The translations under genes and the position numbers were made by a program. From Candidatus Latescibacterota bacterium (GTDB taxonomy: Bacteria > Latescibacterota > UBA2968 > UBA8231), in the NCBI GenBank assembly GCA_965203175.1, contig OZ241867.1:4928001-4992000 (forward strand): DNA of 64,000 nucleotides. The letters run 5' to 3'. The first letter of the stretch is position 1, and every line of letters starts with the position of its first letter. Below the pieces are notes generated by a model. The model was not told the origin of the DNA. It searched no databases and was given only the letters and a program-made list of their open reading frames with translations. Below, in pieces: positions 38,210 to 59,370 of the stretch.

Positions 38210-39178
38210 TTAACGGGCACCTGTTGAAAGCAGCGCTTTGATCCGGCCCCACGACTGGGACTCGACGCTCGTCGAAGCAGCAGAAGGGGAAACCGGTTGC
38301 CAAGCAGGATAATCTCCGCCCAAGCCGTCGGTCAGATTGACCAAGTTGCTCCCGTCTATATCAACAACCCAAACCTCCTGGTCCCCCTGCTCGTTAGCGC
38401 CAGAGAAGGCAATTCTCATGCTGTCGGGCGACCAAGTAGGCTCAGGGGTGGCCGGTATAAACTGGCCGGGTTCAAGTTCAGCTTGTTGATAGGGTAGATC
38501 AGGAAGAGGAATCACCCGGAAATCTATCCGGTTCAGGAGATCTTCTATCGGCTCAGAAGGCTGCGGGACCTCACCGGGAGCGAAGATAGCTAGATATAGG
38601 TAGGCATCGCCCTCAGAGTCCTGCAATACGACATCTGCTAGTTTGGTTCCGTCTGGAGAAAGACCGCGATTATCGAGGGAACCTTTGACTATCCAAGCCG
38701 CTTCCCTCCAATCCATAAGTGAGGATCCACTGCCGTCCAGCGCCACAACGAACACTTCAGGGTTCCCTATGCGGTGCTTTATGAAGTAAATGAGACTTCC
38801 GTCTTCAGCCCAAACAAAATCCTCCGCATTTCCATATCCGGGATTTGTTAGAGATCCCATCTGTTGCGGATTGCCGCCGTCGGCGTCCATCACCCAGACG
38901 TCACCAATGGAATAATCGACCCCGACGGAAACGGGATCTTTACTAAAGGCGAGATAGGCGATCTTCGTGCCATCTGGAGACCAAGCAGGGTTAACGCAAC
39001 GCCCATGCCGACCTTGGGTTAAATTGACGGGATCGCTACCATCCGCATTCATAATCCACACGTCACCGGCCCCCTCGCGCCACGAAGCAAATGCGATTTT
39101 ACCGTCGGCTTGCCCCCAGCCAGCGACGGCCAGCCCCAGCGTTGCCAAGCAGACGAGCAGTAGGGATCGATAGGTCAT
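38210..39178 (-). CDS. Secreted TolB-like (PD40) paralogue T1
   Basis: Signal peptide, KIAF, PAWSPDGTKIAY, C-terminal SVESQSWGRIKALL. Confidence 0.85.
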   Translation of the reverse strand: MTYRSLLLVCLATLGLAVAGWGQADGKIAFASWREGAGDVWIMNADGSDPVNLTQGRHGRCVNPAWSPDGTKIAYLAFSKDPVSVGVDYSIGDVWVMDADGGNPQQMGSLTNPGYGNAEDFVWAEDGSLIYFIKHRIGNPEVFVVALDGSGSSLMDWREAAWIVKGSLDNRGLSPDGTKLADVVLQDSEGDAYLYLAIFAPGEVPQPSEPIEDLLNRIDFRVIPLPDLPYQQAELEPGQFIPATPEPTWSPDSMRIAFSGANEQGDQEVWVVDIDGSNLVNLTDGLGGDYPAWQPVSPSAASTSVESQSWGRIKALLSTGAR

Positions 39179-39240
39179 AACGTAACTCCTTTCATGGATT
39201 AATCGGTTTTTTCCTTTTTAATATATAGAAAAACCTCTGA

Positions 39241-39537
39241 CTACTCATCATCTATCCACGCCTGTAAGCCCCAGCTTTCCAACGACCTCTGTATAGAAGG
39301 AGCGAGTTGCTGGAAGCGCAAAGTCAGGCCCAGTTGCCCCAAACCGATTACGTCGCGTTCAAGCAATGGACTGATGCTCCGCACTTCGTTAGCCACTATA
39401 CAGACCTCCCTTACCCCCTCCCCGACATACGATTCCATGCAGTCGTGCAGGATATCGAACTCCGTCTTATTGATATACCCCATGAGTTCGATGGTTAAGG
39501 TTCGACCGCAGCGATTCAATGTGTTAATACGCACCAT
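39241..39537 (-). CDS. Small STAS-like protein
   Basis: 98 aa, GAGG RBS; beta/alpha pattern TIELMGYI...VRSIS...LRFQQLAPSIQRSLESWGL. Confidence 0.55.
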   Translation of the reverse strand: MVRINTLNRCGRTLTIELMGYINKTEFDILHDCMESYVGEGVREVCIVANEVRSISPLLERDVIGLGQLGLTLRFQQLAPSIQRSLESWGLQAWIDDE

Positions 39538-39571
39538 GCTGATGCCTCTAATCTCAGCCCGCAGCGGTTCT

Positions 39572-41692
39572 TCATGGGAGCTTAGTCGTCTTCTTGGCTT
39601 CTACCTGTCCGTCCACCTCGACCCGATAGAGATACACCCCGGCGGCCACGGCCTTGCCCGCCTCGTCGCGGCCATCCCAAGAAAAACGATGGCTGCCCGC
39701 CCCAAGCGGCCCCTGCCACAACTGCCGCACCCGACGACCCAACACATCATACACCGTCAACGACATCTGCGCCGCGTCTGTCGCCAAATCAAGGGGGAGC
39801 ACGACTGCCGGATTGAACGGATTGGGATAGCTGTCGCCCAGCCGATACTGGACCGGCCGCGCTGCCGTCGACGTCATCACCGCGGTCGCTGGCGCTCCCA
39901 CCGAACTCTTGAGCACCTGCACGCCGCCCAAGACGCTATTTAACACCACCAAGTCCACATCGCCGTCGCCATCCACATCCCCCGGTAGCACCTGTACCCC
40001 CTCGCCGACCAAACGATGCTGCTCCACCTCCTTAGTCGGATTCGCACCCCCACCCCATTCTACGAACACTCCAAAGCCCGAGGCGCGGTCCCCGCCGATA
40101 AATGCCCAATCCTCTACTCCATCGGCGTTCAGGTCGCGCACTACCACCGGTGAGCGCATAAACAGCCCATCATACAGCACCTTCTCCTCTACACCGCCCC
40201 CTAATCGGCTGCTCTGGACGGCAAGGCCCTTGGACCCTTCCCACCTGTTGCGTTCGAGCGGCGTGAGTAGGTCCACCTGCCCGTCGCCATCAAAATCACC
40301 CACTTGTAAAAGAGAAAAAAGAATGCCCGCCATATCGGCTGCGAAATCAAAGACTACCTCGCCCACCTCCGGCGCGTCGCCCAAGCGCCCTACCACCCAC
40401 CTGCCCACCCGGCCTCTCGGTGACCACAGCACGTCCAACTGCCCATCGCCGGTAAAGTCGCCCATCCGCGAGGGAAAATAGTTTTCGGTGACCGCCAACT
40501 GGGTGGCCGTCCACCCCTCCTGCTCGACCTCCCAGACCTCTAACGCTCTTTCTTCCTCCACCGTAAAGTCGGTTGTAAACAGTTCGACCCGGCCATCGCC
40601 ATCCCAATCCACCATATCCACCAGCCCGCGATCATTAATCTGCGTGAGCACCTCCATTTGCAGCTCCGGCCCAATAGACCAGACCGTTATTTCCCAATCT
40701 TTTCTTGTCGCGATCTCGTCTTGGCCATCGCCGGTCAAATCGCCGACGTGCAGATAATCGATCCCTTCTCCGATCCTCTTCTCGGTGTGCACCGTTTCAA
40801 AGGTCCCCCTCCCATCATTGAGGGCCATGACCCAGATGTTTACAAACGGAGGCGAGTGATAATTCTCCCAAGTGGAGAACAGGTCGAGATCGCCGTCCCC
40901 ATCTAAGTCCGTCAAGGCGGCAGCGCTCCTTCCTTTTAAGAAGGCGTCTAGTTCCGATATCAGGGGAGAGAAGACTGGGGGGGCGAAAAGTCCGGCTCCC
41001 TCAAAGCGGAAATACGCTACCGACGGCGGGACTAATTCCCCCGCTAACAGCTCTTCCTCGCCGGTCAACTCGATCCAGTCGATCTCAAACCACCCGACTA
41101 GCTCGTCCACCGGCCGGGACGCCCCCATCTCGCCCCACTCCAAGCGAAAATTCAGCCGAATATCTTGTAAAAGCCCCTCCCAAACCTCCCTGTCGTCCGG
41201 TGCGATCTCCCCGTCCGATTCGGGCAGTGTGAACTCCACTTCCTGCCATTCGGTGGTATAGACGAAGCCTCTTTGTCCTAAAATCCTAAACCGGCCCCCT
41301 AAACCCCAATACTCTGGATCATGACCCGGCTTCGTGAGGTTGTGCTCATTGGTCCAAGCCAGAGAAAAGGAACCGACCGTAGGACCATGATGGACCGTGC
41401 GGACCCGAGCCCGGACCCGGTCGAACAGGCCCGAATCATGGCCTATGATAGGCGAAATTACTTCGACACTCGGGCTAGGAAGCGCATCTCCGGCCATCGA
41501 GGGCGATACATCAATCGTCCATACGCCGTCTTCGACTACCCCCGGAAACAGGTTAAATTCAAACGTGCCGCCCCATCCATTGCCTGTTTTGGCGGCCCAT
41601 CCTTGCGTCGTCCCATCCTCGAAATCCCACGTCATCGCCTCGGCGAAACTGCTCCACAGCACAACGCATGCAATGCTAGCGAACCTCAACAT
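39572..41692 (-). CDS. Secreted FG-GAP/VCBS-repeat protein with FlgD-Ig C-terminal domain, paralogue F1
   Basis: Start MLRF behind GGAGG; signal peptide; DLDGDGDLDL-type repeats; SYPNPFNP...WDGRD..GK.VAAGVY. Confidence 0.88.
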   Translation of the reverse strand: MLRFASIACVVLWSSFAEAMTWDFEDGTTQGWAAKTGNGWGGTFEFNLFPGVVEDGVWTIDVSPSMAGDALPSPSVEVISPIIGHDSGLFDRVRARVRTVHHGPTVGSFSLAWTNEHNLTKPGHDPEYWGLGGRFRILGQRGFVYTTEWQEVEFTLPESDGEIAPDDREVWEGLLQDIRLNFRLEWGEMGASRPVDELVGWFEIDWIELTGEEELLAGELVPPSVAYFRFEGAGLFAPPVFSPLISELDAFLKGRSAAALTDLDGDGDLDLFSTWENYHSPPFVNIWVMALNDGRGTFETVHTEKRIGEGIDYLHVGDLTGDGQDEIATRKDWEITVWSIGPELQMEVLTQINDRGLVDMVDWDGDGRVELFTTDFTVEEERALEVWEVEQEGWTATQLAVTENYFPSRMGDFTGDGQLDVLWSPRGRVGRWVVGRLGDAPEVGEVVFDFAADMAGILFSLLQVGDFDGDGQVDLLTPLERNRWEGSKGLAVQSSRLGGGVEEKVLYDGLFMRSPVVVRDLNADGVEDWAFIGGDRASGFGVFVEWGGGANPTKEVEQHRLVGEGVQVLPGDVDGDGDVDLVVLNSVLGGVQVLKSSVGAPATAVMTSTAARPVQYRLGDSYPNPFNPAVVLPLDLATDAAQMSLTVYDVLGRRVRQLWQGPLGAGSHRFSWDGRDEAGKAVAAGVYLYRVEVDGQVEAKKTTKLP

Positions 41693-41759
41693 GACATTAC
41701 CTCCATATTCCCCGCGATAGTCGCGGCGTGTGGTGATTGTGAGAGCTTGGACGACTCCC

Positions 41760-43823
41760 TCACAGGTTTTCCTCGATTTTCGCCACAACCTCATCAACGT
41801 CAAATACTCTCAAACGATCCTCCACAATCAGCCCTTGGGAATCCACCAGATAATACCGAGGAATGCCGCTCACATTATAGGCTTGCGCGACTTGCTCCGA
41901 GCGCACATGGACGCCTTTGATCTCGTGTTTGGCAATGGCCTGTTTCCAGGCTGCTTCATTCGCGTCTAACGAGATATTGAGGAAGACGACCGGCTGAGCG
42001 GCCACTTGCTCTTTGATCTTGCGGAGAGTCCCCAAATCGGCGATGCACGGTCCGCACCAACTCGCCCAGAAGTCCAGCAAGACCACTTTGCCTTTGAACT
42101 GGCTCAGCGATACAGATTGGCCATCGAGGTCATGGAGGGTGAAATCGGGCGCGGGTTGCCCCGGTTTCAGCATCGAGAGCTTGTTCAGTTCCGCTTGGAG
42201 AGCCTCGGTGTATTCGGGGAAGGGGTTGCTCTCTACAAAGGACCGCCAGCGGGCATCCACAAAGGCTTCGTTGTCGAAGCTAATTCCAAGCATCAAGTCT
42301 CTGGCCAGAGACCAATAGAGCACTCGCCCTTGCAGTCTTTGCTGGGCTAGGTCGTATCGTTCTGGAGTCCTGCGAAAAATTGGAAAACTCGGTCCGGCAA
42401 AGATGGAGTCGAGTTGGGCTTGGACGGCCTCCGATAGACCCAAGGCCGCTAAATCAATCCTCTCGGACAGTTTGGGCGGTGGACTGTTTTGGTACGCGAA
42501 GTACATGGAGTCGAGTTGGGCTTGGACGGCCTCCGATAACTCCAAATCCGACAAGTCAATCCATGCCGACAGCGGGCGATTATTTACGTATTCGTACCAC
42601 TCTCTATTTTTTGCCAGTGGCAAATGGAAGGTCAACTTCCCGTCCGTCGTATCGATCCTCGTGGTATCTTCCATGCCGAAGGTCATGTGATGATCCTCAT
42701 AAGAGTCGAGTTCGGCTAAGGCGGCTGGCGATAACTCCAAACCCAACCAAGCGGCCTTTTCGGACGCACTGATCTCTTTGTGGTTTTCGTACATGGAGTC
42801 GAGGCGGGCGTAGGCACTCTCCGCTAATCCCAGCCCCGCCAGATCAATCATCTGCGATAGTTTAGGGTGGGCGTGGGGTTGGATGTCCGCGTTGTACATG
42901 GAGTCGAGGCGGACGTGGACAGCGGGCGACAAACCCAACCCCGACAGCTTGTACCTATCGGCAAGCCTAGATGGCCTGTCCTCCTCCGCGTTATCCACCT
43001 CCAAGTCTAGCGCGTTCACCACAAACCAGCGATACTCCTGCACGCCAATAGCCTTTTCATTTATCAAGGGGATTTCTTGCAGGAAATCGTAGTAGTCCGG
43101 AGGAACTTCTCTTCTCTCGGAGGGTTTGACGTGGAATCGGCGCATCCAATGGCCGTCTCTAAACGCAAACATCGGATAGGAAATCATCAGATCGGCCCAC
43201 TTGTAGTTGAAAAAGGCCGTCATATAGTCGATGAATCCCGGAGAAAGCGCGTATTGCTCGCGCCCCTCGGCTAGCAAGGCAAATTCATCCTGCCGCCGCT
43301 GTTTGACTTGGCGCGTAAACGCCTCGGGCTCCAGCCCATTGTCTGGGTCGAAGGCATTGTGTTGCGGCCAGAACTCCGCTAAAAAGCGATTGTTATCCGC
43401 TCCCCGGCCGCTAAAAGCCAGGGTATAGGCGGGCGGGGCCTCCTCTTCGGCCGTGTCCAAACTGTCAGATTCCACTGCCGCCGCAGAATCGGTCTCCGTC
43501 ACCTCGGCGAAGGCTACGACCGCGTGTAGGCTGTCGCCGGGTTCGACAAAGAAGGGGATGCGGAAGTATCGCTCACCTCTGTAATACCCGGTGACGAAAG
43601 TTCCTTTGGCAATGTTCAAGTGCAGGGCAAAGCGGTTTTGCTCGTCCAAGACGATGTGGTGTTCGGACGGTCCGGGAGCGAGTAGGGGTTCGTGGTGGAA
43701 CGCGACATCCCGCGACGGAGGGTTGTGGACTTCGCCGGTGACGATTGCGGCGCGTGATGATTGGGCTAGCCCTACACTCGCTGTACTGAGCAGGGCGACG
43801 AGGATGCGAAGGTATCGATTCAT
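41760..43823 (-). CDS. Secreted TlpA/ResA-like redoxin with internal repeats
   Basis: Start MNRYL behind AAGGAAA; signal peptide; APDFTL, GKVVLLDFWASWCGPC, GIPRYYLVD. Confidence 0.88.
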   Translation of the reverse strand: MNRYLRILVALLSTASVGLAQSSRAAIVTGEVHNPPSRDVAFHHEPLLAPGPSEHHIVLDEQNRFALHLNIAKGTFVTGYYRGERYFRIPFFVEPGDSLHAVVAFAEVTETDSAAAVESDSLDTAEEEAPPAYTLAFSGRGADNNRFLAEFWPQHNAFDPDNGLEPEAFTRQVKQRRQDEFALLAEGREQYALSPGFIDYMTAFFNYKWADLMISYPMFAFRDGHWMRRFHVKPSERREVPPDYYDFLQEIPLINEKAIGVQEYRWFVVNALDLEVDNAEEDRPSRLADRYKLSGLGLSPAVHVRLDSMYNADIQPHAHPKLSQMIDLAGLGLAESAYARLDSMYENHKEISASEKAAWLGLELSPAALAELDSYEDHHMTFGMEDTTRIDTTDGKLTFHLPLAKNREWYEYVNNRPLSAWIDLSDLELSEAVQAQLDSMYFAYQNSPPPKLSERIDLAALGLSEAVQAQLDSIFAGPSFPIFRRTPERYDLAQQRLQGRVLYWSLARDLMLGISFDNEAFVDARWRSFVESNPFPEYTEALQAELNKLSMLKPGQPAPDFTLHDLDGQSVSLSQFKGKVVLLDFWASWCGPCIADLGTLRKIKEQVAAQPVVFLNISLDANEAAWKQAIAKHEIKGVHVRSEQVAQAYNVSGIPRYYLVDSQGLIVEDRLRVFDVDEVVAKIEENL

Positions 43824-43864
43824 TGGTCTTTTCCTTTCTAATGGTCTGTGAAAGACCTCCTCCC

Positions 43865-45961
43865 TCATGGGAGTCTGGTCGTCTTCTTGGCTTCTATCTG
43901 TCCGTCCACTTCGACCTTGTAGATATACACCCCGGCGGCTACCCCCTTGCCCACCTCGTCGCGGCCATCCCAAGTAAAACGATGCGCACCCGCTCCGAGT
44001 GCCCCTTGCCACAACTGCCGCACCCGCCGTCCCAACACATCGTACACGGTCAACGACACCCCCGCCGCGTCCATCGCCAAATCAAGGGGGATCACTACAG
44101 CCGGATTGAACGGATTGGGATAGCTGTCGCCGAGCTGATATTCCGCCGGTCGAACTATCGTCGGCGTCTGCACTGCTGTCGGCTGCCCGCCCAGCGAACT
44201 TTTGAGCACATGCACCCCACCCAACAGCGGATCTAACACGACCAAGTCGAGATCGCCGTCGCTATCGACATCCCCGGAGAGCACTTCTACCCCATGGCCC
44301 TCTAGGCGATGCCTTTCCACGGCTCGCGTTGGATTCACGCCTCCGCCCCATTCGACAAATACCCCAAAGCCCGAGGCGCGGTCCCCACCGACAAACACCC
44401 AATCCTCTACCCCGTCGGCGTCCAAGTCGCGCACCATCACCGGCGAGCGCAGAAATAGCCGCTCGTCGTATAGTACTTCCTCTTCTACTACGCCCCCGGC
44501 TCCTCCTAGCTGTACGACCAAGCCCTTGAGGCCTTCGTATTGGACGCGGACGAGCGGCGTGAGCATATCTACTTGCCCATCGCCATCGAAATCGCCTACT
44601 CCTAACACCTCCTTCTCCGCATCGAATTCAAATATCTCACCTCTTTGAAGCTCGTCGCCCAAGGCCCCCACGATCCGCGTGTTCGCCTGCCCGTGGATCG
44701 GTAGCCACAGCACTTCCAGCATTCCATCACCCGTAAAGTCGCCGATCTGAGCGACCACATGGTTTTCAGCGGTAGCCACCTCGGAAGCGGTCCACATCCC
44801 GTTCTCTATATCCCAGACATCTAACGTGCTTCCTTCTAACGTAGCATGCCCTACAAACAACTCGACATCGCCATCGCCATCCCAATCCGCCATATCCCTC
44901 AACCAACGATCATCTATCTCGGTGAGCACTTCCAGTTGGAGGTCCGACTCAATGGACCAAACCTCGATCACGGCAATGATACGCCTATTCCCATGTTCAT
45001 CCTGCGTCACCTTGGCGAGTCGATACATCACTATTTCGTCCTTGCCATCGCCGGTCAAATCGCCGGCAAGCATCTCTATCGTCCCAGGATGGCCGACCTC
45101 CTCTGTGAGCACGGCCTCAAAGGTACCCTCGCCGTTATTGAGGGCCATGGTCCAGCCGCTTTCTTCTGTAACACTATCCCAAACACTATCCCAAGAGGCA
45201 AAAAGGTCTGCGTCGCCATCGCCATCCAAGTCCGTCAAGATGCCGGCCCTCTCTCCATAAGCTCCTACTCCCGGCGTAATCGGATAGAAAACCGGCGGGG
45301 CAAAAAATCCAGTCCCATCAAAGCGAAAGTACTCTACGTGCGGCGGGGGGAGTTCACCCTGTAGGAATTCTTCAACGCCGCTCAACTCAATCCAGTCAAT
45401 CTCAATCTCCCCAACCACATCGTCCTCGTTCCGATCTAGGATAAAATTCAGCCGAATATCCCTTAATAGACCCTCCCACATGACCTCGTCTTGGCCGATA
45501 AATGAAAACTCTATTTCCTGCCACTCAGTGGTGTAAACGAAATCTGTTTGTCCTGAAAGCTCAAATCGACTTTTGAACCGATTATCTGGGTCCTCACCCG
45601 GAGATATAAGGTTGTGCTCATTGGTCCAGGTGAGCCAAAAGGAACCGACCGTAGAGCTGTGATGTACGGTGCGGAATCGGATCCAGATCTGGTCGAACAG
45701 ATGCGAATCGTGCCCTATGGTGGGAGAAATCAATTTGACATTCGGCTTAGACCAATGCCCGGTGACTGAGGACGAGACATCGATCTTCCACACGCCGTCT
45801 GCGACTATACCGGGAAAAACGTCAAATTCACGCGGCCCACCCAATGTAAGAGTTTCTTTAGCGACCCATCCTTGCGTCATCCCATCGTCGAACTCCCAAA
45901 CGATCGCCTCGGCGAGGCTAGGCCACAGCGCAATCCACACAACAACGGCCAGCTTCAGCAT
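43865..45961 (-). CDS. Secreted FG-GAP/FlgD protein, paralogue F2
   Basis: Same architecture as F1; start MLKL behind GGAGG. Confidence 0.88.
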   Translation of the reverse strand: MLKLAVVVWIALWPSLAEAIVWEFDDGMTQGWVAKETLTLGGPREFDVFPGIVADGVWKIDVSSSVTGHWSKPNVKLISPTIGHDSHLFDQIWIRFRTVHHSSTVGSFWLTWTNEHNLISPGEDPDNRFKSRFELSGQTDFVYTTEWQEIEFSFIGQDEVMWEGLLRDIRLNFILDRNEDDVVGEIEIDWIELSGVEEFLQGELPPPHVEYFRFDGTGFFAPPVFYPITPGVGAYGERAGILTDLDGDGDADLFASWDSVWDSVTEESGWTMALNNGEGTFEAVLTEEVGHPGTIEMLAGDLTGDGKDEIVMYRLAKVTQDEHGNRRIIAVIEVWSIESDLQLEVLTEIDDRWLRDMADWDGDGDVELFVGHATLEGSTLDVWDIENGMWTASEVATAENHVVAQIGDFTGDGMLEVLWLPIHGQANTRIVGALGDELQRGEIFEFDAEKEVLGVGDFDGDGQVDMLTPLVRVQYEGLKGLVVQLGGAGGVVEEEVLYDERLFLRSPVMVRDLDADGVEDWVFVGGDRASGFGVFVEWGGGVNPTRAVERHRLEGHGVEVLSGDVDSDGDLDLVVLDPLLGGVHVLKSSLGGQPTAVQTPTIVRPAEYQLGDSYPNPFNPAVVIPLDLAMDAAGVSLTVYDVLGRRVRQLWQGALGAGAHRFTWDGRDEVGKGVAAGVYIYKVEVDGQIEAKKTTRLP

Positions 45962-46087: not shown

Positions 46088-46103
46088 TGCACATTCCGTG
46101 CCA
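46088..46103 (-). promoter_or_regulatory. Sigma54 -24/-12 promoter
   Basis: TGGCACGGAATGTGCA (GG-N10-GC). Confidence 0.85.
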
Positions 46104-46125
46104 GATACTACGCCTCGAACAAAAA

Positions 46126-46152
46126 AACCCTTTAGGATCAACCTAAAGGGTT
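46126..46152. promoter_or_regulatory. Dyad AACCCTTTAGG-N5-CCTAAAGGGTT
   Basis: Perfect 11-bp inverted repeat; core conserved at 55982-56000 at the same distance from the sigma54 box. Confidence 0.65.
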
Positions 46153-46226: not shown

Positions 46227-46281
46227 CACGACTTTCCGTGGACCGCGCACGACTTTTCGTGTTTTTCCACGACTTTTCGTG
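46227..46281. promoter_or_regulatory. Putative enhancer (UAS) array: 3 x CACGA-N4-TCGTG
   Basis: Sites at 46227, 46248, 46268 (21/20 bp period), ~125 bp upstream of the -24 box. Confidence 0.7.
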
Positions 46282-49580: not shown

Positions 49581-49737
49581 AGCAGCGCACGAGAGGACGG
49601 AAGGATGCGCAGCTTCAGCCGTCAGCGCAAGGATTCCCACGACTGTGCTGTGTTGGCCGCCTACGACTTTTTCGGGTAGGATTACTTTTGGATTCTGAGC
49701 TTGTGGACCGATAAGGAAGGATTAGTGCGGAAGGGCG

Positions 49738-49774
49738 CGTAGGGGGCGGTGCGGAGCACAATCCGCCCCCTACG
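49738..49774. repeat. GTAG-type REP-like palindrome
   Basis: CGTAGGGGGCGG-loop-CCGCCCCCTACG; right arm recurs at ~51863-51873. Confidence 0.6.
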
Positions 49775-50802: not shown

Positions 50803-51741
50803 TCATGGGACTGCAAGCAGCGCTTTGATCTGTCCCCACGACTGGACTTCGACGCTCGTCGCAGCCGGGGTCGTCGGCTGCCAAGAGGGTTTGCGTCCAC
50901 CTAAACCGTTGGTCAAATTGACCAAGTTGCTCCCGTCTATATCAACAACCCAAATCTCATCGCCCCCTTGCTCGCTAGCAGCAGAGAAGGCGATTCTCAT
51001 GCTATCAGGCGACCAAGTAGTTGGGTCAGACATTCTCTCCCAGCCGGGTTCAAGTTCAGCTTGTTGATAGGGTAGATCGGGAAGGAGGATCTCCGAGAAA
51101 TCTTCTATCTGTTTAGAAGGCTGCGGCCCCTCACTGGGAGCGTAGCTAACTAGGCGTAGGTAGGCATTGCCCTCGTCGTCCTGCAACACGACTTCTGCTT
51201 GTTTGGTTCCGTCTGGAGAACGATTATCGCGGAAACGGCGGGCTATCCCAGCTCCCTCCTTCCAATCCACGGGTGAGGAGCCACTGCCGTCCAACTCCAC
51301 CGCGAACAGTTCATTGGGGGACCCCCTCCTATAGTAGTAAATGCGACTCCCGTCTTCAGCCCAAAAGATCTCTTCAAATCCGGATTCGGATCCGGGATCT
51401 ACTAGATATCCCACTTGTTGCGGATTGCCGCCATCGGCGTCCATCACCCAGATGGCACCTTGGGAATAATCGACATAGAGGACCCCATCGGAATCGAAAA
51501 GATCGTCAAAGGCGAGATAGGCGATCTTCGTGCCATCTGGAGACCAAGCCGGGCTAACGCACTGCAGATGTCGTCCTGGGGTTAAGTTGACGGGGACGCT
51601 CCCATCCGCATTCATAATCCACACGTCAGAACGCCCCTCGTGTCTGGAGAGAAATGCTATTTTACCGTCGGCTTGCCCCCAGCCAGCGACGGCTAGCCCC
51701 AGTGTTGCCAAGCAGACGATCATTAGGGAGCGATAGTTCAT
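50803..51741 (-). CDS. Secreted TolB-like paralogue T3
   Basis: Start MNYRSL behind AAGGAGG; SVEVQSWGQIKALL tail. Confidence 0.85.
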   Translation of the reverse strand: MNYRSLMIVCLATLGLAVAGWGQADGKIAFLSRHEGRSDVWIMNADGSVPVNLTPGRHLQCVSPAWSPDGTKIAYLAFDDLFDSDGVLYVDYSQGAIWVMDADGGNPQQVGYLVDPGSESGFEEIFWAEDGSRIYYYRRGSPNELFAVELDGSGSSPVDWKEGAGIARRFRDNRSPDGTKQAEVVLQDDEGNAYLRLVSYAPSEGPQPSKQIEDFSEILLPDLPYQQAELEPGWERMSDPTTWSPDSMRIAFSAASEQGGDEIWVVDIDGSNLVNLTNGLGGRKPSWQPTTPAATSVEVQSWGQIKALLAVP

Positions 51742-51803
51742 AACGTGCCTCCTTGCATAAGGTGTATGAATAGAATGTACTACTAACAGTAAATCTATAT
51801 GCC

Positions 51804-51819
51804 TGCACATTCCGTGCCA
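51804..51819 (-). promoter_or_regulatory. Sigma54 -24/-12 promoter (no adjacent UAS array)
   Basis: TGGCACGGAATGTGCA identical to the 46088 copy. Confidence 0.8.
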
Positions 51820-51868
51820 AAAATTCGAGCACCGACAAAAAATCCTTAAGGACTAGTGCGAACCGCCC

Positions 51869-52870
51869 CTACGGACGAGGCGAGATTGACGGGGAACCCG
51901 TTGAAAGCAGCGATTTGATCCGGCCCCACGACTGGGACTCGACGCTCGTAGAGGAAGGAACGACAGGTTGCCAAGCGGGAGAATGTCCACCTAAACCGTT
52001 AGTCAATTCGACTAGGTTGCTCCCGTCTATATCAACGGCCCAAATGAAATCGGTGAAATCAGAGAAGGCTATTCTCATGCTGTTGGGTGCCCAAGTATGG
52101 AAAAACAGCCATGTGTCGTCGGACACGCACACACCGTCCTGGCCATACCAAGTGCGAAACGAGTCTGGGGACTCGCGCACGCACAGACCACTCTGGTCTA
52201 GGTCCGGTAGAGGGATAACCGAAAGCTCGGCTCTGATACGCTGAAGAAAAACCGAGGCATCGACTCCTCTGCTGGTAGGCTCATGAAAAATAGAGAAAAC
52301 CGAGGGCTCATTTTCTCTAACATCGCTGACGTAGAAGCGGGCGAGGTTCACTTCGTCTCCTTTTTCCCGCAGCACGACAACGGCTTCTTTAGTCCCGTCC
52401 GGGGAACGATTGTGGCCGTTGTAGGGCGCCTCTCTCCAGTCCACGGGCGAGGAGCCACTGCCGTCTAGCGCCATGACAAACGTACTAGTACTAGTAGTCC
52501 ACTCGGTATAGTAAATGCTACTTCCATCTGCAGACCACGAAAGACGTATTCTATCGACTGAATCGTCTGTTAGCTGCTGTGGATTGCCGCCATCGGCATC
52601 CATCAACCAAATCTCTCCACCATACTGATCATCGTCAAAAACATCGCTGATATAGGCGATCTTCGCGCCATCCGGGGACCAAGCCGGGCTAATGCAATCC
52701 CGTCCTTGGGTTAGATTTACGGGATCGCTCCCATCCGCATTCATAATCCACACGTCACCGTGCCCCTCGCGGTCGGAGATAAATGCTATTTTACTGTCGG
52801 CTTGCCCCCAGCCAGCGACGGCCAGCCCCAGCATTGCCAAGCAGACGAGCAGTAGGGATCGATAGCTCAT
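51869..52870 (-). CDS. Secreted TolB-like paralogue T4
   Basis: Start MSYRSL behind AAGGAG; SVESQSWGRIKSLL tail. Confidence 0.85.
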   Translation of the reverse strand: MSYRSLLLVCLAMLGLAVAGWGQADSKIAFISDREGHGDVWIMNADGSDPVNLTQGRDCISPAWSPDGAKIAYISDVFDDDQYGGEIWLMDADGGNPQQLTDDSVDRIRLSWSADGSSIYYTEWTTSTSTFVMALDGSGSSPVDWREAPYNGHNRSPDGTKEAVVVLREKGDEVNLARFYVSDVRENEPSVFSIFHEPTSRGVDASVFLQRIRAELSVIPLPDLDQSGLCVRESPDSFRTWYGQDGVCVSDDTWLFFHTWAPNSMRIAFSDFTDFIWAVDIDGSNLVELTNGLGGHSPAWQPVVPSSTSVESQSWGRIKSLLSTGSPSISPRP

Positions 52871-52939
52871 AACGTAGCTCCTTTCACAATATGGATTCAT
52901 CGGTCTTTCCTTTTTAATAATGCTAAAAAACCTCCCTCC

Positions 52940-54940
52940 TTATGGGAGCTTGGTCGTCTTTTTCGCTTCCACCTGTCCGTCCACCTCGACCCGATAGATA
53001 TACACCCCAGCGGCTACTGCCTTCCCCGCCTCATCGCGGCCATTCCAAGCAAGACGATGGCTACCCGCCCCAAGCGGCCCCTGCCACAACTGCCGCACCC
53101 GACGACCCAACACATCGTACACCGTCAACGACATCTGCGCCGCGTCTGTTGCCAAATCAAGGGGGATCACGACAGCCGGATTGAACGGATTGGGATAGCT
53201 GTCGCCGAGCCGATACTGCGTCGGTCGAACCATCGTCGGCGTCTGCACGGCCGTCGGCTGCCCGCTCAGCGAATTCTTGAGCACATGCACCCCGCCCAGT
53301 ATCGGATCTAACACCACCAAATCGAGATCGCCGTCGCTATCTATATCCCCGGAGAGCACGTGGGTACCACTTCCCTGCAGACGATGCCGCTCCCCTGCTT
53401 GGGTAGGATGGCCCCCCCCACTCCATTCGACAAACACCCCAAAGCCCGACGCGCGGTCTCCACCGATAAACACCCAGTCCTCAACCCCATCGGCGTTTAG
53501 ATCGCGTACCATCACCGACGAGCGGAGGAACAGCCGATCATCATATAATACCTCTGCGACTTCTAGGCCGCCTCCGGCGCTCTTACTCTTCAAGACCAGC
53601 CCCTTACGACCTTCAAATTGATCGTGTGTGAACTCTGTGACGAAATCCATCTGCCCATCGCCGTCAAAATCTACCATTTCTTCGCCCCCCACAATCAGCG
53701 TGTTCGGCCACAATATGTCTAGTAATGACCCATCGCCGATAAGGTCGTCGGTCTCCACCTCCTCGTAAGTCCGCACGCCCTGTTCTATATACCATATCTC
53801 GCCTTCTTCAAAAGCAATATCTTTTACATATAATTCACCCCGTCCGTCGTCATTCCAATCAACCACAGCCACGAGCCATCTATCCTCGATCTGTACCAGC
53901 ACCTCGACTTGGAGTGCCGGCCCGATAGACCAAACTTCTATCATCTGCTCTTCTTCCCCATTCCAGCGGGGATATATCACGATTTCGTCTTGACCATCGC
54001 CGGTCAAGTCAGCACCTACCACACCTAAGTATGACCTAGCGACCACCGTTGAGTAATCACCTGTGGCCTCTACCTCTATAGGTCCCAGTTCCAACGCACC
54101 TTGTCCGTCATTGAGTGCCATCAGCCATCCAGCTTTATCCTCAGGCCACCCTCCGTTGTAATCTTTAAAATAAAAGAAGGCGAAAAGGTCTAGTGCCCCA
54201 TCGCCATCCAAATCCGTCAAGACACCAGCCACATCACTCGCCTTTTCTCCCCCTATGCCCCGCGCAATCGGATAGAAAACCGGCGGGGCAAAAAGTCCGA
54301 CCTCATCAAAGCGAAAGTACTCCACGGGTGGAGGAGGCAGGTCTCCCTGTGCGAGCTCTTCCTCACCGGTCAACTCAATCCAGTCAATCTCCAACCATTC
54401 GACCGTCTCTGCCGACGGGTCCCCATCATCCAGTGAAAAACTGAGCTGAATATCTTTTAACCAGCCCTCCCAATCGTCTTGACCTGCTAACGAGAACACT
54501 ACTTCCTTCCACTCAGTGGTATAGACTGGTGCTTCTCGAGAGACGATTCTAAACGGGTATCTAGATAGCTGTTCGAAATCCCGCATGTTGTGCTCGTTGG
54601 CCCACTCCATCGTAAAACCACCACTACCAACCGTAGGGCGGTCGGTGCGGAACCGGATGCGGACTTGGTCGAACAGACCCGAATCGTACCCAATGGTAGG
54701 AGAAACCAACTCGACAGTCGTCCAAGAGTAGTAACTCTTGGTGACGGAGGGCGCGACCGCAATCCTCCACACGCCATCTTCGACCTCCCCTGGAAACAGG
54801 TGCAATTCACGCTTACCACCCCACAAAAAAGCCTCTTTGGCAGACCACCCCTGCGCCGTCCCATCGTCGAACTCCCACGTGATCGCCACGGCAGGACCGC
54901 TCCATAGCATCGCGCATACAACAACGGAGAATTTCAACAT
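52940..54940 (-). CDS. Secreted FG-GAP/FlgD protein, paralogue F3
   Basis: Same architecture as F1/F2, shorter in the central FG-GAP region. Confidence 0.88.
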   Translation of the reverse strand: MLKFSVVVCAMLWSGPAVAITWEFDDGTAQGWSAKEAFLWGGKRELHLFPGEVEDGVWRIAVAPSVTKSYYSWTTVELVSPTIGYDSGLFDQVRIRFRTDRPTVGSGGFTMEWANEHNMRDFEQLSRYPFRIVSREAPVYTTEWKEVVFSLAGQDDWEGWLKDIQLSFSLDDGDPSAETVEWLEIDWIELTGEEELAQGDLPPPPVEYFRFDEVGLFAPPVFYPIARGIGGEKASDVAGVLTDLDGDGALDLFAFFYFKDYNGGWPEDKAGWLMALNDGQGALELGPIEVEATGDYSTVVARSYLGVVGADLTGDGQDEIVIYPRWNGEEEQMIEVWSIGPALQVEVLVQIEDRWLVAVVDWNDDGRGELYVKDIAFEEGEIWYIEQGVRTYEEVETDDLIGDGSLLDILWPNTLIVGGEEMVDFDGDGQMDFVTEFTHDQFEGRKGLVLKSKSAGGGLEVAEVLYDDRLFLRSSVMVRDLNADGVEDWVFIGGDRASGFGVFVEWSGGGHPTQAGERHRLQGSGTHVLSGDIDSDGDLDLVVLDPILGGVHVLKNSLSGQPTAVQTPTMVRPTQYRLGDSYPNPFNPAVVIPLDLATDAAQMSLTVYDVLGRRVRQLWQGPLGAGSHRLAWNGRDEAGKAVAAGVYIYRVEVDGQVEAKKTTKLP

Positions 54941-54956
54941 GACATCACCTCCCAAC

Positions 54957-55898
54957 CTAACGGGTACCCGTTGAAAGCAGCGCTTTGATCCGTCCCCATG
55001 ACTGGACTTCGACGCTCGTGGCAGTAGCAGAAGGAGAAACTGGTTGCCAAGCGGGACTAGCTCCGTCCAAGCCGTTGGTCAGATTGACCAAGTTACTCCC
55101 GTCTATATTAACAACCCAAACTCCCCGGTACCCTTGCTCGTCATTGGCAGTGAAGGCGATTCTCATGCTGTCAGGCGACCAAGTAGGGTCGCGATCCATT
55201 CTCTCGTAGCCGGGTTCAAGTTCAGCTTGTTGATAGGGTAGATCAGGAAGGAGAATCTCCGAGAAATCCTCTATCTGGTTGGAAGGATACGGCCCCTCAG
55301 TGGGAGCGAAGACAACTAGGCGTAGGTAGGCATTGCCCTCTCCGTCCTGCAACACGACGGTTGCTCGTTTGGTTCCGTCTGGAGAGCGATCGAGGGAACG
55401 ACGGACTATCCCAGCCGCATCCCTCCAGTCCATAAGTGAGGAGCCACTGCCGTCCAGCGGCACAACGAACAGTTCATAGCGGGGATGCTGCACGTAGTAG
55501 TAAATGTTACTTCCGTCTTCAGCCCAAAAAAGCTCCTTAGACATGGTCTCTCCTATACTGGTCTCTGGTAGAGATGCCACTTGTTGCGGATTGCCGCCAT
55601 CGGCGTCCATCACCCAGATATCGGCAACGGAATAATCGGCCCAGGCGGAATCGGGATCGGCACTAAAGGCGAAATAGGCGATCTTCGTGCCATCTGGAGA
55701 CCAAGACTGTCTAATGCAATGGGCATGCCGACCTTGGGTTAAGTTGACGGGGGCGCTCCCATCCGCATTCATAATCCACACGTCACCGGCCCCCTCGCGC
55801 CACGAAGTAAATGCTATTTTACCGTCGGCTTGCCCCCAGCCAGCGACAGCCAGCCCCAGCGTTGCCAAGCAGACGATTAGTAGGGATCGATAGCTCAT
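54957..55898 (-). CDS. Secreted TolB-like paralogue T5
   Basis: Start MSYRSL behind AAGGAG; SVEVQSWGRIKALL tail. Confidence 0.85.
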   Translation of the reverse strand: MSYRSLLIVCLATLGLAVAGWGQADGKIAFTSWREGAGDVWIMNADGSAPVNLTQGRHAHCIRQSWSPDGTKIAYFAFSADPDSAWADYSVADIWVMDADGGNPQQVASLPETSIGETMSKELFWAEDGSNIYYYVQHPRYELFVVPLDGSGSSLMDWRDAAGIVRRSLDRSPDGTKRATVVLQDGEGNAYLRLVVFAPTEGPYPSNQIEDFSEILLPDLPYQQAELEPGYERMDRDPTWSPDSMRIAFTANDEQGYRGVWVVNIDGSNLVNLTNGLDGASPAWQPVSPSATATSVEVQSWGRIKALLSTGTR

Positions 55899-55939
55899 AA
55901 TGTGGCTCCTTGTATAAGGTTGTGAATAGGGTACATATA

Positions 55940-55955
55940 GGCACATTCCGTGCCA
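55940..55955 (-). promoter_or_regulatory. Sigma54 -24/-12 promoter
   Basis: TGGCACGGAATGTGCC. Confidence 0.85.
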
Positions 55956-56078
55956 AAAATTCGGCCGCCGACAAAAAAGTTCTTTAGGAATACCCTAAAG
56001 GATTGAAAAACATAATACTTAAAATATGAAACGAGTCTTTTTACGATGCGCGGCCTCAGCCCTCGGCATAAGCCTTTC

Positions 56079-56134
56079 CACGTTTTTTCGTGCAATCTGA
56101 ACGACTTTCCGTGCAATCTGAACGACTTTCCGTG
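56079..56134. promoter_or_regulatory. Putative enhancer (UAS) array: 3 x (C/A)ACG-N6-CGTG, 21-bp period
   Basis: Sites at 56079, 56100, 56121; same offset from the sigma54 box as 46227. Confidence 0.7.
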
Positions 56135-56142
56135 TTGGCCGC

Positions 56143-59100
56143 CTACGACTTCTTCGGTCGGCGCAACCCGTACTTCCTCATGCGATAGCGCAGCTTCTCT
56201 GGGCTCATCCCCAACAAATGCGCCGCACCCCGCTCGCCGTATATCATCCAGTTAGTCGCTTGCAGAGCCTCCACAAGCTGCTGCTTTTCATCCAAGCCTT
56301 CGCCAGCCGCTGGCGCGGGTGGCCCTGCATCTCCAGACCGCCGCGCAACCGACGGCAGCAGCAAATCACCAACGCGTATCACCCCACCCTCGCACAGCAA
56401 CACCGCCCGATGGATCAGGTGCTCCAACTCGCGCACATTCCCCGGCCAAGCATACCCCTGCAAGTGCGCGACCACCCCCTCGTCTAAGGTCGGTGCCGGA
56501 CGTCGCAGATGCTGGGCATACCGCTCGGCAAAATGTGCCGCCAAAGCCGGGATATCCTCTTGCCGCTGACGCAGAGGTGGAAGCTCTAGCGTGAAGACAC
56601 TCAGACGGTAGAACAGGTCTTCGCGGAACGTGCCCTCTTGGATGGCCTGTCGCAAGTCGCGGTTCGTCGCCGCGATGACCCGCACATCCACGCGCACAGG
56701 CTGCTCGCCGCCGACGCGGGTCAAGGCATTCTCCTCTAAGATGTGCAGCAGCACCCGCTGAGACTCCAACGGCAAATCGCCGATCTCGTCCAGAAAGAGG
56801 GTGCCGCCATCGGCCAGTTCAAAGCGGCCGAGTTGACGGCTCGCCGCCCCGGTAAAAGCCCCCTTCTCGTGGCCGAATAACTCGCTTTCGATCAACCCAG
56901 CCGGCAGTGCCCCGCAATTGACTTGGATGAAAGGCCGCTTGCGGCGAGTGCTTGTCTCGTGGATGGTCTGCGCCAATAAGCCCTTGCCCGTGCCGGTCTC
57001 GCCCAGCACCAGCACAGTCATCGCCGTCTCAGCGACGAGCACGGTCTGCTCCATCACTTGGCGCATCGCCCAACTCTCGCTATGTACGACGTGGTCGGCC
57101 GCACGCAGAAAGTTTTCAAAAGCGTGGATGCGTTCGGTTTTAGCGTCGGGGAGGATCTGAATCTCCAGGCTGGCGACCTCCGACAGCAAACCATCGCGGT
57201 CCATCGTCCTCACCTCAAAGTGGTACTCGCCCACCGGCAGGGAGCTATACACGACCTCATCGGCGACCGTAAACGCACTCCACTGTTCCGTCGGATCGTG
57301 CCCTAACAGCCGGTGGCTGTAGCGCATCTGTCCCGCGCCGGTGCGGAAACTGATGCCTTGGAAGTGAATGCGGATTTCCGGGGTGCTTTCTGGGCAGGAT
57401 ACAGCTTCGGGCGCGGTCAAGAGGGTGCCGGCCATGACCTCGCGGATGACCAAGCGCGGCGGCGTGTGTCCCGGCTGGTAGGCAACCAGCCCCGCCCGCG
57501 TGCCAAACCACAGCCGACCGCGCCGGTCGCACAGGACGGCTTCGACCATGTTGTCGAGGGCAGACGGCCCCAAGCGGATGCTTTGGAAGGTCTCGCCATC
57601 GTAGCGAAGGACGCCGCCGCCGCTGGTGCCCATCCAAATATGGCCCTCCGAGTCGGCCGTCAGCGCCAAGATGCCATTGGCTGACAGCCCAAACTGTTCG
57701 GCGGTAAAGTGGCGCACCTTCCGCGATGAGAGATCAAGGGCGAACAATCCCTTAGCCGTACCCACCCACAGGGTGTTTTGGTGCTCCCATAAGATGTTGA
57801 CATAGGCGATGGACTCCGCTTCGGCCATATCCGCTGGGCGCAAGCGATCATCCTCGTAACAGTAGAGTGCCGGGACTTCTCCGTATAAACCCATCCAGAG
57901 TACACCGTCTCGGTCTTGCAACAACGATCCGACCCAGAATACCCTGTCTTGATCTTGCAGCAAGGTGCCACATTCATCAAGGGGAATAAAGTGATTTTCC
58001 CCTATCCAGCCGAAGCGACCGGTGGACGTACCGACCCAGATACGCCCTTGTCCATCTCCGCATAGCCCAGTGATTGTTTCTGGATGGGTCTCTTCGGCCA
58101 CGGAGATCGCTTGTGGCGTTTGGCCCTCCCACTTGTACACCTTGCCCGTATCCCCGCTACTCCAGACCTGTCCCTGGCCATCCACCACCATCGCCCAGAC
58201 GGTTTCCCCCGTCTTGACCGGACGGACTTGCCCTTCTTCCATATAGGCCATGCCCCCCATCGTGCCAATCCACATCCGACCCTCATGGTCTTCTCCCAAG
58301 TGGCGAATCTCGCGGTCGGGCAGGCCATCGGCTTCCGTGTAGCGACGGATGCTAGTCGGGTCACAAAAAATCAGTCCACCACCCCAAAGTCCAATCCAGA
58401 TATTGCCCTCGCGGTCTTCGTACGTCAGACGCGTAAGCGAAAAGTCAATATCTGGCAAAGAAGCAGAAAAGGACTGCCACTCCTGCCCGTCGTGTACCAT
58501 CACGCCTCGGTGGGTCAGCCAGAGCCAGCCCCTCTCGTCAGTCCGCACGTGCCGCGTCCCGCTCTGCGCCACTCCTTCGTCGCCCTTGCCCGCATTAATG
58601 CACGCAACCTGTTGGTCCCGTGGATCATAGCGGCCGATCAAGACTTCGCTACTTGAGTAACCGAAGGCGATCCACAGATGGCCGGAGGAGTCTTGGGCAA
58701 ATTTCCAAGGCCATTGGCCCGCCTCCTCGCCGATACCCATACCCATATACCGCCCATCCAAGCTGAGGACGCCTTGACCCACCGTCGCCAGCCAAGTAGT
58801 ACCACTCGCGTCAGTAGCCATGTCGTACACGCGCCCCAACGGTTGGCCGCCAACATCGGTTATACTCCTTATGCAGCGGCCCTCGGCAAACCAAGCCACG
58901 CCCGCGCCCGTCAACGCCAAAATCGAGCCGTCCGGCTGAGCTTGCAGGCCCACAATCTCATTGGAAGGTAGGCCGTGCTCAGTGGTGTACACCTGAAAAT
59001 CGCGCCCGTCATAGGCGGCAATCCCACCGCCGAACGTGCCGAACAAAAGCCGACCGTCCGCGTCTTCGGCAATGGCCATGACCGTCAGATTGGGCAGACC

Positions 59101-59280
59101 GTCCTTGAGGCTAAACGTATCGAACCGGGCACTGTCGAACCGGCTGACGCCCCCGTCGGCCGTGGCGACCCAGAGAAAACCCTGGCGATCTTGGTAGATG
59201 TCTTCCACGTGCATCCCAGCCAGCCCATCAAAAACAGTGTACTGATTGCTCAACACGTGCTCAAAGGATAGGTCGCTCAT
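56143..59280 (-). CDS. Sigma54 enhancer-binding protein with beta-propeller + Y_Y_Y sensor, paralogue R2
   Basis: Colinear with R1; intact GAFTGA, Walker A/B and HTH. Confidence 0.93.
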   Translation of the reverse strand: MSDLSFEHVLSNQYTVFDGLAGMHVEDIYQDRQGFLWVATADGGVSRFDSARFDTFSLKDGLPNLTVMAIAEDADGRLLFGTFGGGIAAYDGRDFQVYTTEHGLPSNEIVGLQAQPDGSILALTGAGVAWFAEGRCIRSITDVGGQPLGRVYDMATDASGTTWLATVGQGVLSLDGRYMGMGIGEEAGQWPWKFAQDSSGHLWIAFGYSSSEVLIGRYDPRDQQVACINAGKGDEGVAQSGTRHVRTDERGWLWLTHRGVMVHDGQEWQSFSASLPDIDFSLTRLTYEDREGNIWIGLWGGGLIFCDPTSIRRYTEADGLPDREIRHLGEDHEGRMWIGTMGGMAYMEEGQVRPVKTGETVWAMVVDGQGQVWSSGDTGKVYKWEGQTPQAISVAEETHPETITGLCGDGQGRIWVGTSTGRFGWIGENHFIPLDECGTLLQDQDRVFWVGSLLQDRDGVLWMGLYGEVPALYCYEDDRLRPADMAEAESIAYVNILWEHQNTLWVGTAKGLFALDLSSRKVRHFTAEQFGLSANGILALTADSEGHIWMGTSGGGVLRYDGETFQSIRLGPSALDNMVEAVLCDRRGRLWFGTRAGLVAYQPGHTPPRLVIREVMAGTLLTAPEAVSCPESTPEIRIHFQGISFRTGAGQMRYSHRLLGHDPTEQWSAFTVADEVVYSSLPVGEYHFEVRTMDRDGLLSEVASLEIQILPDAKTERIHAFENFLRAADHVVHSESWAMRQVMEQTVLVAETAMTVLVLGETGTGKGLLAQTIHETSTRRKRPFIQVNCGALPAGLIESELFGHEKGAFTGAASRQLGRFELADGGTLFLDEIGDLPLESQRVLLHILEENALTRVGGEQPVRVDVRVIAATNRDLRQAIQEGTFREDLFYRLSVFTLELPPLRQRQEDIPALAAHFAERYAQHLRRPAPTLDEGVVAHLQGYAWPGNVRELEHLIHRAVLLCEGGVIRVGDLLLPSVARRSGDAGPPAPAAGEGLDEKQQLVEALQATNWMIYGERGAAHLLGMSPEKLRYRMRKYGLRRPKKS

Positions 59281-59318
59281 ACTCGCCTTTCCGACGATTG
59301 GGAGGTTTTTAATACATA

Positions 59319-59370
59319 CGACATCCTAAACCTGATCCTAGGCTGAGGTTGCCTCAAGTTGAATTTCACC
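59319..59370 (-). promoter_or_regulatory. Conserved upstream element of R2
   Basis: Near-copy of 49529-49580. Confidence 0.65.

Follow-up and report, generated by a model that had tools for sequence, protein, structure and literature searches.

A duplicating gene array in Latescibacterota with propeller-sensor activators predicted to control exported propeller proteins from sigma54 promoters

Why would a bacterium intersperse two nearly identical transcriptional activators among eight paralogous propeller proteins that carry secretion signals? The question is raised by twelve minus-strand genes in a stretch of 64,000 nucleotides (the window) from a Candidatus Latescibacterota bacterium (GCA_965203175.1, contig OZ241867.1, positions 4,928,001 to 4,992,000). 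The genome is a single 6.58-Mb contig. A sponge metagenome label is attached to 5 of the 20 sequencing runs containing the stretch, from four studies, and the host bacterium is probably a sponge symbiont. No RNA dataset is among the runs listed. An initial annotation of the window had described the gene order as R2-[UAS,P54]-T5-F3-T4-[P54]-T3-T2-R1-[UAS,P54]-F2-TlpA-F1-STAS-T1, where UAS denotes upstream activating (enhancer) sites and P54 a sigma54 promoter. Both the place and the order hold, and a profile scan of each protein recovers the same count: two bacterial proteins of the enhancer-binding class (bEBPs) with propeller sensors (R1, R2), five TolB-like proteins (T1 to T5), three FG-GAP/FlgD paralogues (F1 to F3) and one exported thiol-redoxin (Tlp). 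Based on the evidence below, the cluster is best explained, with a probability of roughly 0.55, as a duplicating array whose two cytoplasmic activators would, through adjacent enhancers and sigma54 promoters, switch on exported propeller proteins that probably serve as variable surface binders, with the activator paralogues predicted to be sorted into a few channels.

R1 and R2 are 88% identical. Both match Reg_prop, Y_Y_Y, Sigma54_activat, AAA lid and HTH_8, with Y_Y_Y above its cut-off in R2 and at 25.0 bits against a cut-off of 26.6 in R1; the scores for Sigma54_activat (PF00158) are 234 and 232 bits. Walker A, GAFTGA (at 804 in R1 and 807 in R2), Walker B, sensor I and sensor II are all intact. 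These AAA+ motifs, a Fis-type helix-turn-helix (HTH), upstream sites before a -24/-12 box and the single rpoN gene in the genome are the features by which sigma54 enhancer-binding proteins are recognized. The genome also has three HU/IHF-family genes. Neither activator possesses a signal peptide or a 19-residue hydrophobic window above 1.6, so the sensor is cytoplasmic, in line with its earlier description as soluble. It is homologous to the periplasmic sensors of Bacteroides hybrid two-component systems (HTCS), specifically 3V9F (E 3e-48) and 4A2L (E 5e-40). Two sensor blocks, residues 126-260 and 346-480, have a ratio of nonsynonymous to synonymous substitution (dN/dS) of 0.35, compared with 0.07 in the AAA domain, and five Cys positions are kept in at least 40 of 49 homologues. 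R falls below every NCBIfam equivalog cut-off compared. Among the best 120 of 7785 matches, only close relatives were found, and the corresponding Atlas cluster is Latescibacterota where known. A search of the openly accessible literature returned no description of the sensor-activator fusion or of the array.

The three -24/-12 boxes, initially called near-identical, are in fact identical (TGGCACGGAATGTGC). At the first and third boxes, the full cassette starts with three ACG-N6-CGT sites, followed by an IHF-like box, a hairpin plus T run and finally the -24/-12 box; the IHF-like box is a presumptive assignment from the IHF consensus. The middle box is a truncated copy, since it lacks a UAS and retains only half of the hairpin. 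On its own, a loose sigma54 pattern exceeds chance only slightly (10 matches for 5.1 expected, with 4 of 100 shuffles reaching 10). The full cassette is well beyond chance, with 13 in the genome and 0 in each of two shuffles. Four TGGCACGAAGATCGC matches were rejected as promoters, being located inside T coding repeats. A sigma70 promoter scan stayed at chance level (7 found, 7.0 expected), and a terminator scan was near chance overall (15 vs 12.3). The palindrome was also considered as a pure protein site, an idea rejected because its substitutions favor a sense-strand RNA hairpin: across the stems of 89 distinct cassettes, pairing is kept in 46 of 66 deviating cells (29 G-U and 17 Watson-Crick), the remainder being mismatches (11 A-C and 9 of other kinds). 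Because the search pattern itself partly demanded a T run, how often one occurs is no evidence. The hairpin is read as the activator's putative terminator, which would insulate the cargo. Separate hairpin heads of the form GTAGGGG-CG, presumably of the repetitive extragenic palindromic type, lie directly after T genes at 49764-49773 and 51864-51872 of the window.

The array is a single node in a regulon that spans the genome. There are nine close copies of the activator, one of them split, plus two distant paralogues, and all nine close copies have a cassette directly behind them. The remaining cassettes of the 13 are three complete orphans with CACG..CGTG (C-type) sites and the truncated copy in the array. 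Genome-wide, a cassette precedes 13 of 16 T genes and 9 of 10 F genes, compared with 3 of 15 redoxins, 4 of 70 other genes with the WGxIK tail described below and 4 of 111 other FlgD-tailed genes. An activator paralogue at G000:C1:3320614-3323455 is split into two open reading frames (ORFs), and the intact C-type cassette before its F and Tlp genes is kept.

Outside this genome, the activator occurs in 17 of 18 congeneric genomes, and a query covering the sensor end, linker and AAA start matches 85 of 151 genomes of the phylum, a match that denotes the query span and does not confirm the full fusion in each genome. Among 49 full-length homologues collected from this genome and 13 relatives, 43 have a cassette behind them, as do 20 of 26 homologues from further genomes; among distant activators, several precede a sigma54 box and others none. 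With rpoN present, these frequencies support the proposal that adjacent propeller-sensor activators exert sigma54 control. The accompanying view that ties the activators to propeller arrays was too narrow, the cassette being a general switch with varied, nearly always exported cargo. For example, sister cassettes in relatives (L019:3950-16737, L012 and L037) drive short, Cys-rich, leader-bearing peptides, some of them fused to an FlgD tail. These clusters also contain F genes, an A24 peptidase, two redoxins, a tetratricopeptide repeat protein, a glycosyltransferase-transglutaminase fusion and a GT2 gene, and look like a peptide maturation cluster.

One residue of the recognition helix appears to track the outer base of the enhancer. 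In the helix xPE(K/R)LR(Y/S)R, copies with Ser have TACG..CGTA (T-type) sites in 18/18 and 8/8 cassettes (26/26). The 37 copies with Tyr have C-type sites in 13 and 11 cassettes, A-type (AACG) sites in 9, all of them GPEK copies, and T-type sites in 1, with no call in 3, so that C or A type accounts for 33/37. NPEKLRSR copies carry T sites, so the Tyr/Ser position, and not the Lys/Arg position, is the correlate. In trees built with FastTree only, the residue changed state eight times on the sensor tree and nine times on the AAA tree. Cassettes without an adjacent activator make up 24 of the 83 distinct cassettes in the fetched loci, and 22 of these keep C- or T-type sites, as would be expected if the activators act in trans by channel. 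Both R1 and R2 are Tyr copies. A distinct activator clade (L029-L036 and G000:C1:1061493), with GAFTSA and GPEKLRYR, has A-type sites; its targets are mostly exported thioredoxin-fold proteins encoded as repeated pairs.

The array had also been proposed to be expandable, and comparison with relatives bears this out. At the orthologous site, beside a gene for a 364-aa aldolase-like protein, six congeneric Latescibacterota genomes, four of them single-contig, have other orders and copy numbers: R-T-T-R-T-Tlp-F-STAS in G012, R-T-Tlp-F-STAS in G006, T-R-T-T-R-fragment-Tlp-STAS in G003, R-R-fragments-Tlp-other-STAS-Tlp-T in G010, R-F-T-Tlp-F-Tlp-STAS in G013 and R-T-T-Tlp-F-Tlp-STAS in G011. The upstream flank of the array is common to G010 and G011 only. 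The same parts in other orders and numbers indicate a real accordion locus. Paralogue ends are 80-92% alike in DNA, a similarity that, judged from the sequences, is enough for recombination, and the enhancer remnant before R1 and the truncated middle promoter are scars of that process.

A further concern was that the array is a chimeric assembly of strain variants. No piece from the sequencing runs spans the whole stretch, the runs show many variant paralogue pieces, and the contamination estimate for the genome is 6.5%. Nonetheless, contigs from other runs bridge F1/Tlp, F2/promoter/R1, F3/T5 (X4) and UAS/R2 (X3), and X1, possibly the source run, bridges Tlp/F2, F2/R1 and T3/T4 without difference. 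The T paralogues are only 48-70% identical, and multi-copy arrays exist in four other single-contig genomes. The concern is not borne out by this evidence, and a chimera is extremely improbable.

All five T proteins match PD40. The model of T1 is a TolB-type propeller (pLDDT 76) that aligns with TolB 7mx5 over 223 residues (Z 18.5, root-mean-square deviation (rmsd) 3.7), and in the model the signal peptide leads straight into the propeller with no TolB N-terminal domain. T1 and T2 score 83 and 43 bits to TIGR02800, for which the cut-off is 343. The earlier description of the secreted proteins as variable can be made more specific for T, whose variation is concentrated on one face of the propeller. 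Among 20 T sequences caught by a strict pattern, and with loop-face classes set by hand from the secondary structure of the model and the repeat register rather than from coordinates, the top-face loops have an entropy of 1.13-1.20 versus 0.17-0.60, about twice that of strands and bottom loops, and hold four of five insertion sites. Their dN/dS is 0.79 versus 0.35 (20 sequences, 9 pairs). Positive selection was considered and rejected, no region exceeding a dN/dS of 1. The T tail, T[AS]VExx[ST]WGxIK, lies near the C-terminus in 89 of 4646 genes and is never internal; by a crude rule, a signal-like start is present in 78 of these 89 genes and in 1428 of 4646 overall. TAV likewise occurs in the F linkers, ahead of the Ig tail, and may be a cleavage site shared with the WGxIK tail.

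F1 to F3 are 54-59% identical and match FG-GAP and FlgD_ig. The model contains a beta-sandwich, an FG-GAP propeller and an Ig tail (pLDDT 72). No Pfam family matches the N-terminal domain above noise, and its homologues all have the same F layout among the best 120 of 319 listed. The propeller dominates the Foldseek results, and the relation to integrin-alpha/CRTAC1 propellers is one of resemblance. The likeness to galactose oxidase and sialidases is confined to the sandwich-propeller-Ig domain order, with a TM-score of about 0.3 and an rmsd of 19. Galactose oxidase (AA5) depends on a Cys-Tyr cofactor. F was ruled out as such an enzyme, having no mature cysteine and hence no Cys-Tyr site.

That the array proteins are secreted, as first proposed, is supported by signal peptides, C-terminal tails and translocon genes, from which the route may be deduced. 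Each F protein has a signal peptide and passes the model for type A tails of the T9SS (type IX secretion system; scores in Table 1), and the genome encodes SprA and two copies of PorV, with a PorU-like gene adjacent to PorV. The 2,129-aa SprA-like gene and the adjacent PorU-like and PorV genes, at G000:C1:2481570-2487959 and 2958213-2963109, constitute a T9SS core in Latescibacterota. The GldM and PorP models had no match in the genome, yet no control genome passed their cut-offs either, and GldK/L/N were not searched for. Another FlgD-tailed secreted protein, which ends in VAVVY, is encoded at 34833-37013 of the window, and many window genes have a C-terminal xxY ending.

The redoxin has a WCGPC motif and a signal-like N-terminus, and its unnamed N-terminal part contains five 68-nt internal repeats (window 42403-42965, family D17). 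It had been cast as the array's own folding helper, a role rejected on the cysteine counts of the mature cargo: F1 to F3 have none, T1, T2, T3 and T5 have one each and T4 has three. Because mature F proteins have no Cys and four T proteins only one, the redoxin has no disulfides to fold there. Additionally, no cassette precedes 12 of the 15 redoxin paralogues. A role as exported cargo is the better reading.

The small gene labeled STAS is more equivocal. Its protein matches no Pfam family at E 0.5, and a STAS profile returned nothing meaningful from the PDB. The support for the label comes from STAS clusters in the Atlas at 0.87-0.89, under 0.9, and from a positional analogue, L057, that passes STAS_2. 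The gene is present in 21 of 26 congeneric genomes, kin that are not independent. Of the five genomes lacking it, G137 has a partial close activator and the others only distant ones, and G074 has a close activator without the gene. Most copies lie downstream of an activator, and two copies that do not are behind orphan cassettes. Across 131 genomes of the class, the profile matched only in the genus of this bacterium and missed distant forms. Outside the close set, 4 of 29 loci (L057, L143, L158 and L159) have a distant STAS-like gene immediately following the activator; of these, L143 was chosen because of its STAS match and its propeller was not shown. The STAS-like gene travels with the activators, and the preferred reading is that it encodes a candidate feedback partner. 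Several activators have a co-encoded small inhibitor, as in the PspF/PspA, HrpS/HrpV, NifA/NifL and FleQ/FleN pairs, a possible parallel for this role, and none of the 17 entries listed in a literature search on such pairs contained 'STAS domain'.

Table 1. Array features by window position. The likely gene starts give shorter genes than the longest ORFs for F1 (41692), Tlp (43823), F2 (45961), T3 (51741), T4 (52870), F3 (54940) and T5 (55898).
Feature	Position	Strand	Evidence
T1, secreted stand-alone TolB-like beta-propeller with C-terminal T[AS]VExx[ST]WGxIK tail	38210..39178	-	PD40, model, fold match to TolB
STAS-like protein, 98 aa, sole cargo without signal peptide	39241..39537	-	Atlas STAS leads; position behind activators
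F1: signal peptide, unnamed beta-sandwich, FG-GAP propeller, FlgD/T9SS type A C-terminal domain	39572..41692	-	TIGR04183 30.5 vs 23, model
Tlp, exported TlpA/ResA-like redoxin, WCGPC, large unnamed N-terminal part with internal repeats	41760..43823	-	Profile match
F2	43865..45961	-	FG-GAP, FlgD_ig; TIGR04183 28.5 vs 23
Sigma54 -24/-12 box, R1 cassette	46089..46103	-	TGGCACGGAATGTGC
Hairpin then T run, predicted intrinsic terminator of R1 transcript	46126..46152	-	
Three CACG-N6-CGTG enhancer sites, C type, spaced 20-21 bp	46227..46281	-	
R1, cytoplasmic double-propeller/Y_Y_Y sensor and sigma54 AAA+ activator, recognition helix NPEKLRYR	46336..49461	-	
Enhancer-block remnant upstream of R1, duplication scar	49638..49670	-	
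T2	49787..50755	-	PD40
T3	50803..51741	-	PD40
Truncated cassette: -24/-12 box (51805-51819) and half hairpin, without enhancer	51805..51851	-	
T4	51869..52870	-	PD40
F3	52940..54940	-	FG-GAP, FlgD_ig; TIGR04183 31.2 vs 23
T5	54957..55898	-	PD40
Sigma54 -24/-12 box, R2 cassette	55941..55955	-	TGGCACGGAATGTGC
Terminator-like hairpin overlapped by IHF-like box (one mismatch)	55981..56008	-	
Three CACG-N6-CGT(T/G) enhancer sites, spaced 21 bp	56079..56134	-	
R2, second activator, recognition helix SPEKLRYR	56143..59280	-	

Elsewhere in the window, a region of low GC content (28062-29814; 0.405 at 28001-30000) contains a 440-aa orphan gene and a small antitoxin-like gene.

The proposed mechanism would begin with an activator made from its own promoter, whose transcript probably terminates at the hairpin immediately preceding the sigma54 box. 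On the precedent of HTCS and bEBPs, the double propeller would be bound by a ligand in the cytoplasm, thereby freeing the AAA+ domain; the likeliest ligands are an oligosaccharide imported by the cell or a small partner protein, for instance the co-transcribed STAS-like protein. Dimers of R would then bind the three ACG-N6-CGT sites, and the residue in LR-x-R would set the outer base, with Ser specifying T..A and Tyr specifying C..G, or A..T in the GPEK clade, so that the paralogues would share about three channels. R1 and R2, both with Tyr, would be expected to cross-activate, each at the promoter of the other, and also to act on the three C-type orphan cassettes located outside the array. 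T, F and the redoxin are predicted to cross the inner membrane by Sec, after which F would exit through the T9SS-like SprA/PorV/PorU by its type A tail and T possibly by its short TAVExxSWGxIK tail. Near-identical gene ends likely recombine, so that cargo is gained, lost and rearranged, a process consistent with the observed arrangements, and the loops on one T face drift fastest.

Several observations weigh against this mechanism or its parts. One Tyr copy (L019) has T-type sites by the rule used. The residue still changed state five times on the tree of HTH-flanking DNA, but with weak support, and supported branches yield five independent pairs only, all of which agree (mean 4.9 same, 0 opposite; p 0.0625). 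The HTH and the UAS are about 50 bp apart and inherited together, and such tight linkage could itself cause the correlation between helix and site. The hand-set loop faces noted above qualify the T comparison, and dN/dS above 1 appeared in no R region or T class, with no site model applied, so that the T variation is accounted for equally well by relaxed constraint and by selection for new binding. A cassette is lacking behind 6 of 49 and 6 of 26 activators, and sister cassettes drive other exported cargo: WD40 and FG-GAP proteins, thioredoxin pairs, Cys-rich peptides with an A24 peptidase and redoxins, TonB receptors, and a GH2-like gene and glycosidases.

Such diversity of cargo would fit the view that the cassette is a general, easily copied on-switch, with T and F as passengers that vary by neutral duplication and gene conversion and have no repertoire function. 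The broken copies, fragments and enhancer-less promoter in this array and in those of relatives, the dN/dS values below 1 everywhere and the restriction of the T family at E 1e-60 to the genus of this bacterium (13 of 18 congeners and 0 of 12 genomes outside it) point the same way. However, the association of T and F with the cassette is much stronger than that of other tailed proteins, variation and indels favor one face with the bottom loops conserved, and all eight T and F genes in the window are intact. Neutral passengers are a serious but unlikely explanation. A bolder extension of the preferred reading, a lineage-wide recombining network for sensing and display, with two diversifying sensor blocks, about three residue-routed enhancer channels, STAS feedback, a T9SS outside the Bacteroidota, two export tags (the Ig tail and the short, unnamed TAVExxSWGxIK tail) for a propeller repertoire with variable loops, and recognition of the sponge host or its community, is doubtful as a whole.

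Two functional alternatives are less probable still. In the first, the locus would be a glycan-foraging unit in which R senses an imported oligosaccharide as HTCS do and F and T capture or process glycan for nutrition. The homology of the sensor to Bacteroides HTCS (PMC3243724) is compatible with this, as are the domain order that F shares with galactose oxidase and sialidases and the distant activator L056, which precedes a GH2-like gene, a glycan-binding protein and a transporter. The array, by contrast, has no glycosidase, sulfatase or transporter, and F lacks both the mature cysteine of a Cys-Tyr oxidase and a Pfam match for its N-terminal domain, which makes foraging improbable. A regulon for envelope or oxidative stress, with exported thioredoxin-fold proteins as its recurring product and T periplasmic like TolB, would account for the redoxins under cassettes of three activator clades and the distant family, for the closeness of the T fold to TolB and for the five retained Cys positions of R. 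It is improbable as well, given that most Tlp paralogues lie outside cassettes, that T lacks the TolB N-terminal domain and scores far below the TolB cut-off, and that the F proteins carry an outer-membrane export tail.

Overall, this analysis adds four observations: the tracking of enhancer base by helix residue, the confinement of T variation mainly to one face, the STAS-like gene that travels with the activators, and SprA, PorV and PorU genes in the genome. The activator family offers a candidate for a natural one-residue, one-base enhancer code in sigma54 activators, confined to a 60-residue domain and 14-bp sites and useful for orthogonal promoters, and the C-terminal tail shared by 89 genes suggests that an uncultured phylum has a second sorting signal. 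Propeller-repeat proteins are numerous in sponge symbionts and thought to mediate host contact, and the available part of one account leaves their control and export route open (PMC8163846). For such proteins, the array provides candidates for both the switch and the export route, together with paralogues ready for study.

Compared with known systems, R1 and R2 belong, on sequence criteria, to the bEBP family and not to the HTCS, and the T proteins are not TolB. With the NtrC, NifA, NorR, FhlA and PspF groups of bEBPs (PF00158), R shares the R-C-D layout, the GAFTGA loop, the HTH, upstream sites, a -24/-12 promoter and an IHF-like box. In contrast to those groups, it is multiplied as an activator-enhancer-terminator-promoter unit, and the regulatory domains tabulated in the available text of PMC7175178 (RR/PRD, PAS/V4R/ACT and GAF) do not include a 700-aa Reg_prop/Y_Y_Y double propeller. 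Bacteroides HTCS (3V9F, 4A2L/4A2M, 3OTT/3VA6), as described in PMC3243724, likewise have Reg_prop repeats and Y_Y_Y and lie adjacent to the genes they control. Unlike them, R is cytoplasmic and has no transmembrane helix, kinase, receiver or AraC domain, and its array has no glycan-degrading cargo. T shares PD40 repeats and fold with TolB (7MX5, 1C5K; TIGR02800) and differs in the absent N-terminal domain, the low scores, the C-terminal tail, the variable top loops and the multiple copies. F resembles T9SS type A cargo (TIGR04183; PMC5445135) in its Sec signal, its Ig-like tail above the cut-off and the presence of SprA, PorV and PorU-like genes; the differences from known cargo are the Latescibacterota host and the short TAVExxSWGxIK tail that T has in place of an Ig domain. 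Finally, the eukaryote-like repeat proteins of sponge symbionts (PMC8163846, PMC12993501) offer a comparison, propeller-repeat proteins being abundant in sponge Latescibacterota. The accessible portions of these two accounts name neither PD40/FG-GAP arrays nor a regulator, and that of PMC12993501 does not mention 'sigma', 'T9SS' or 'secretion system'.

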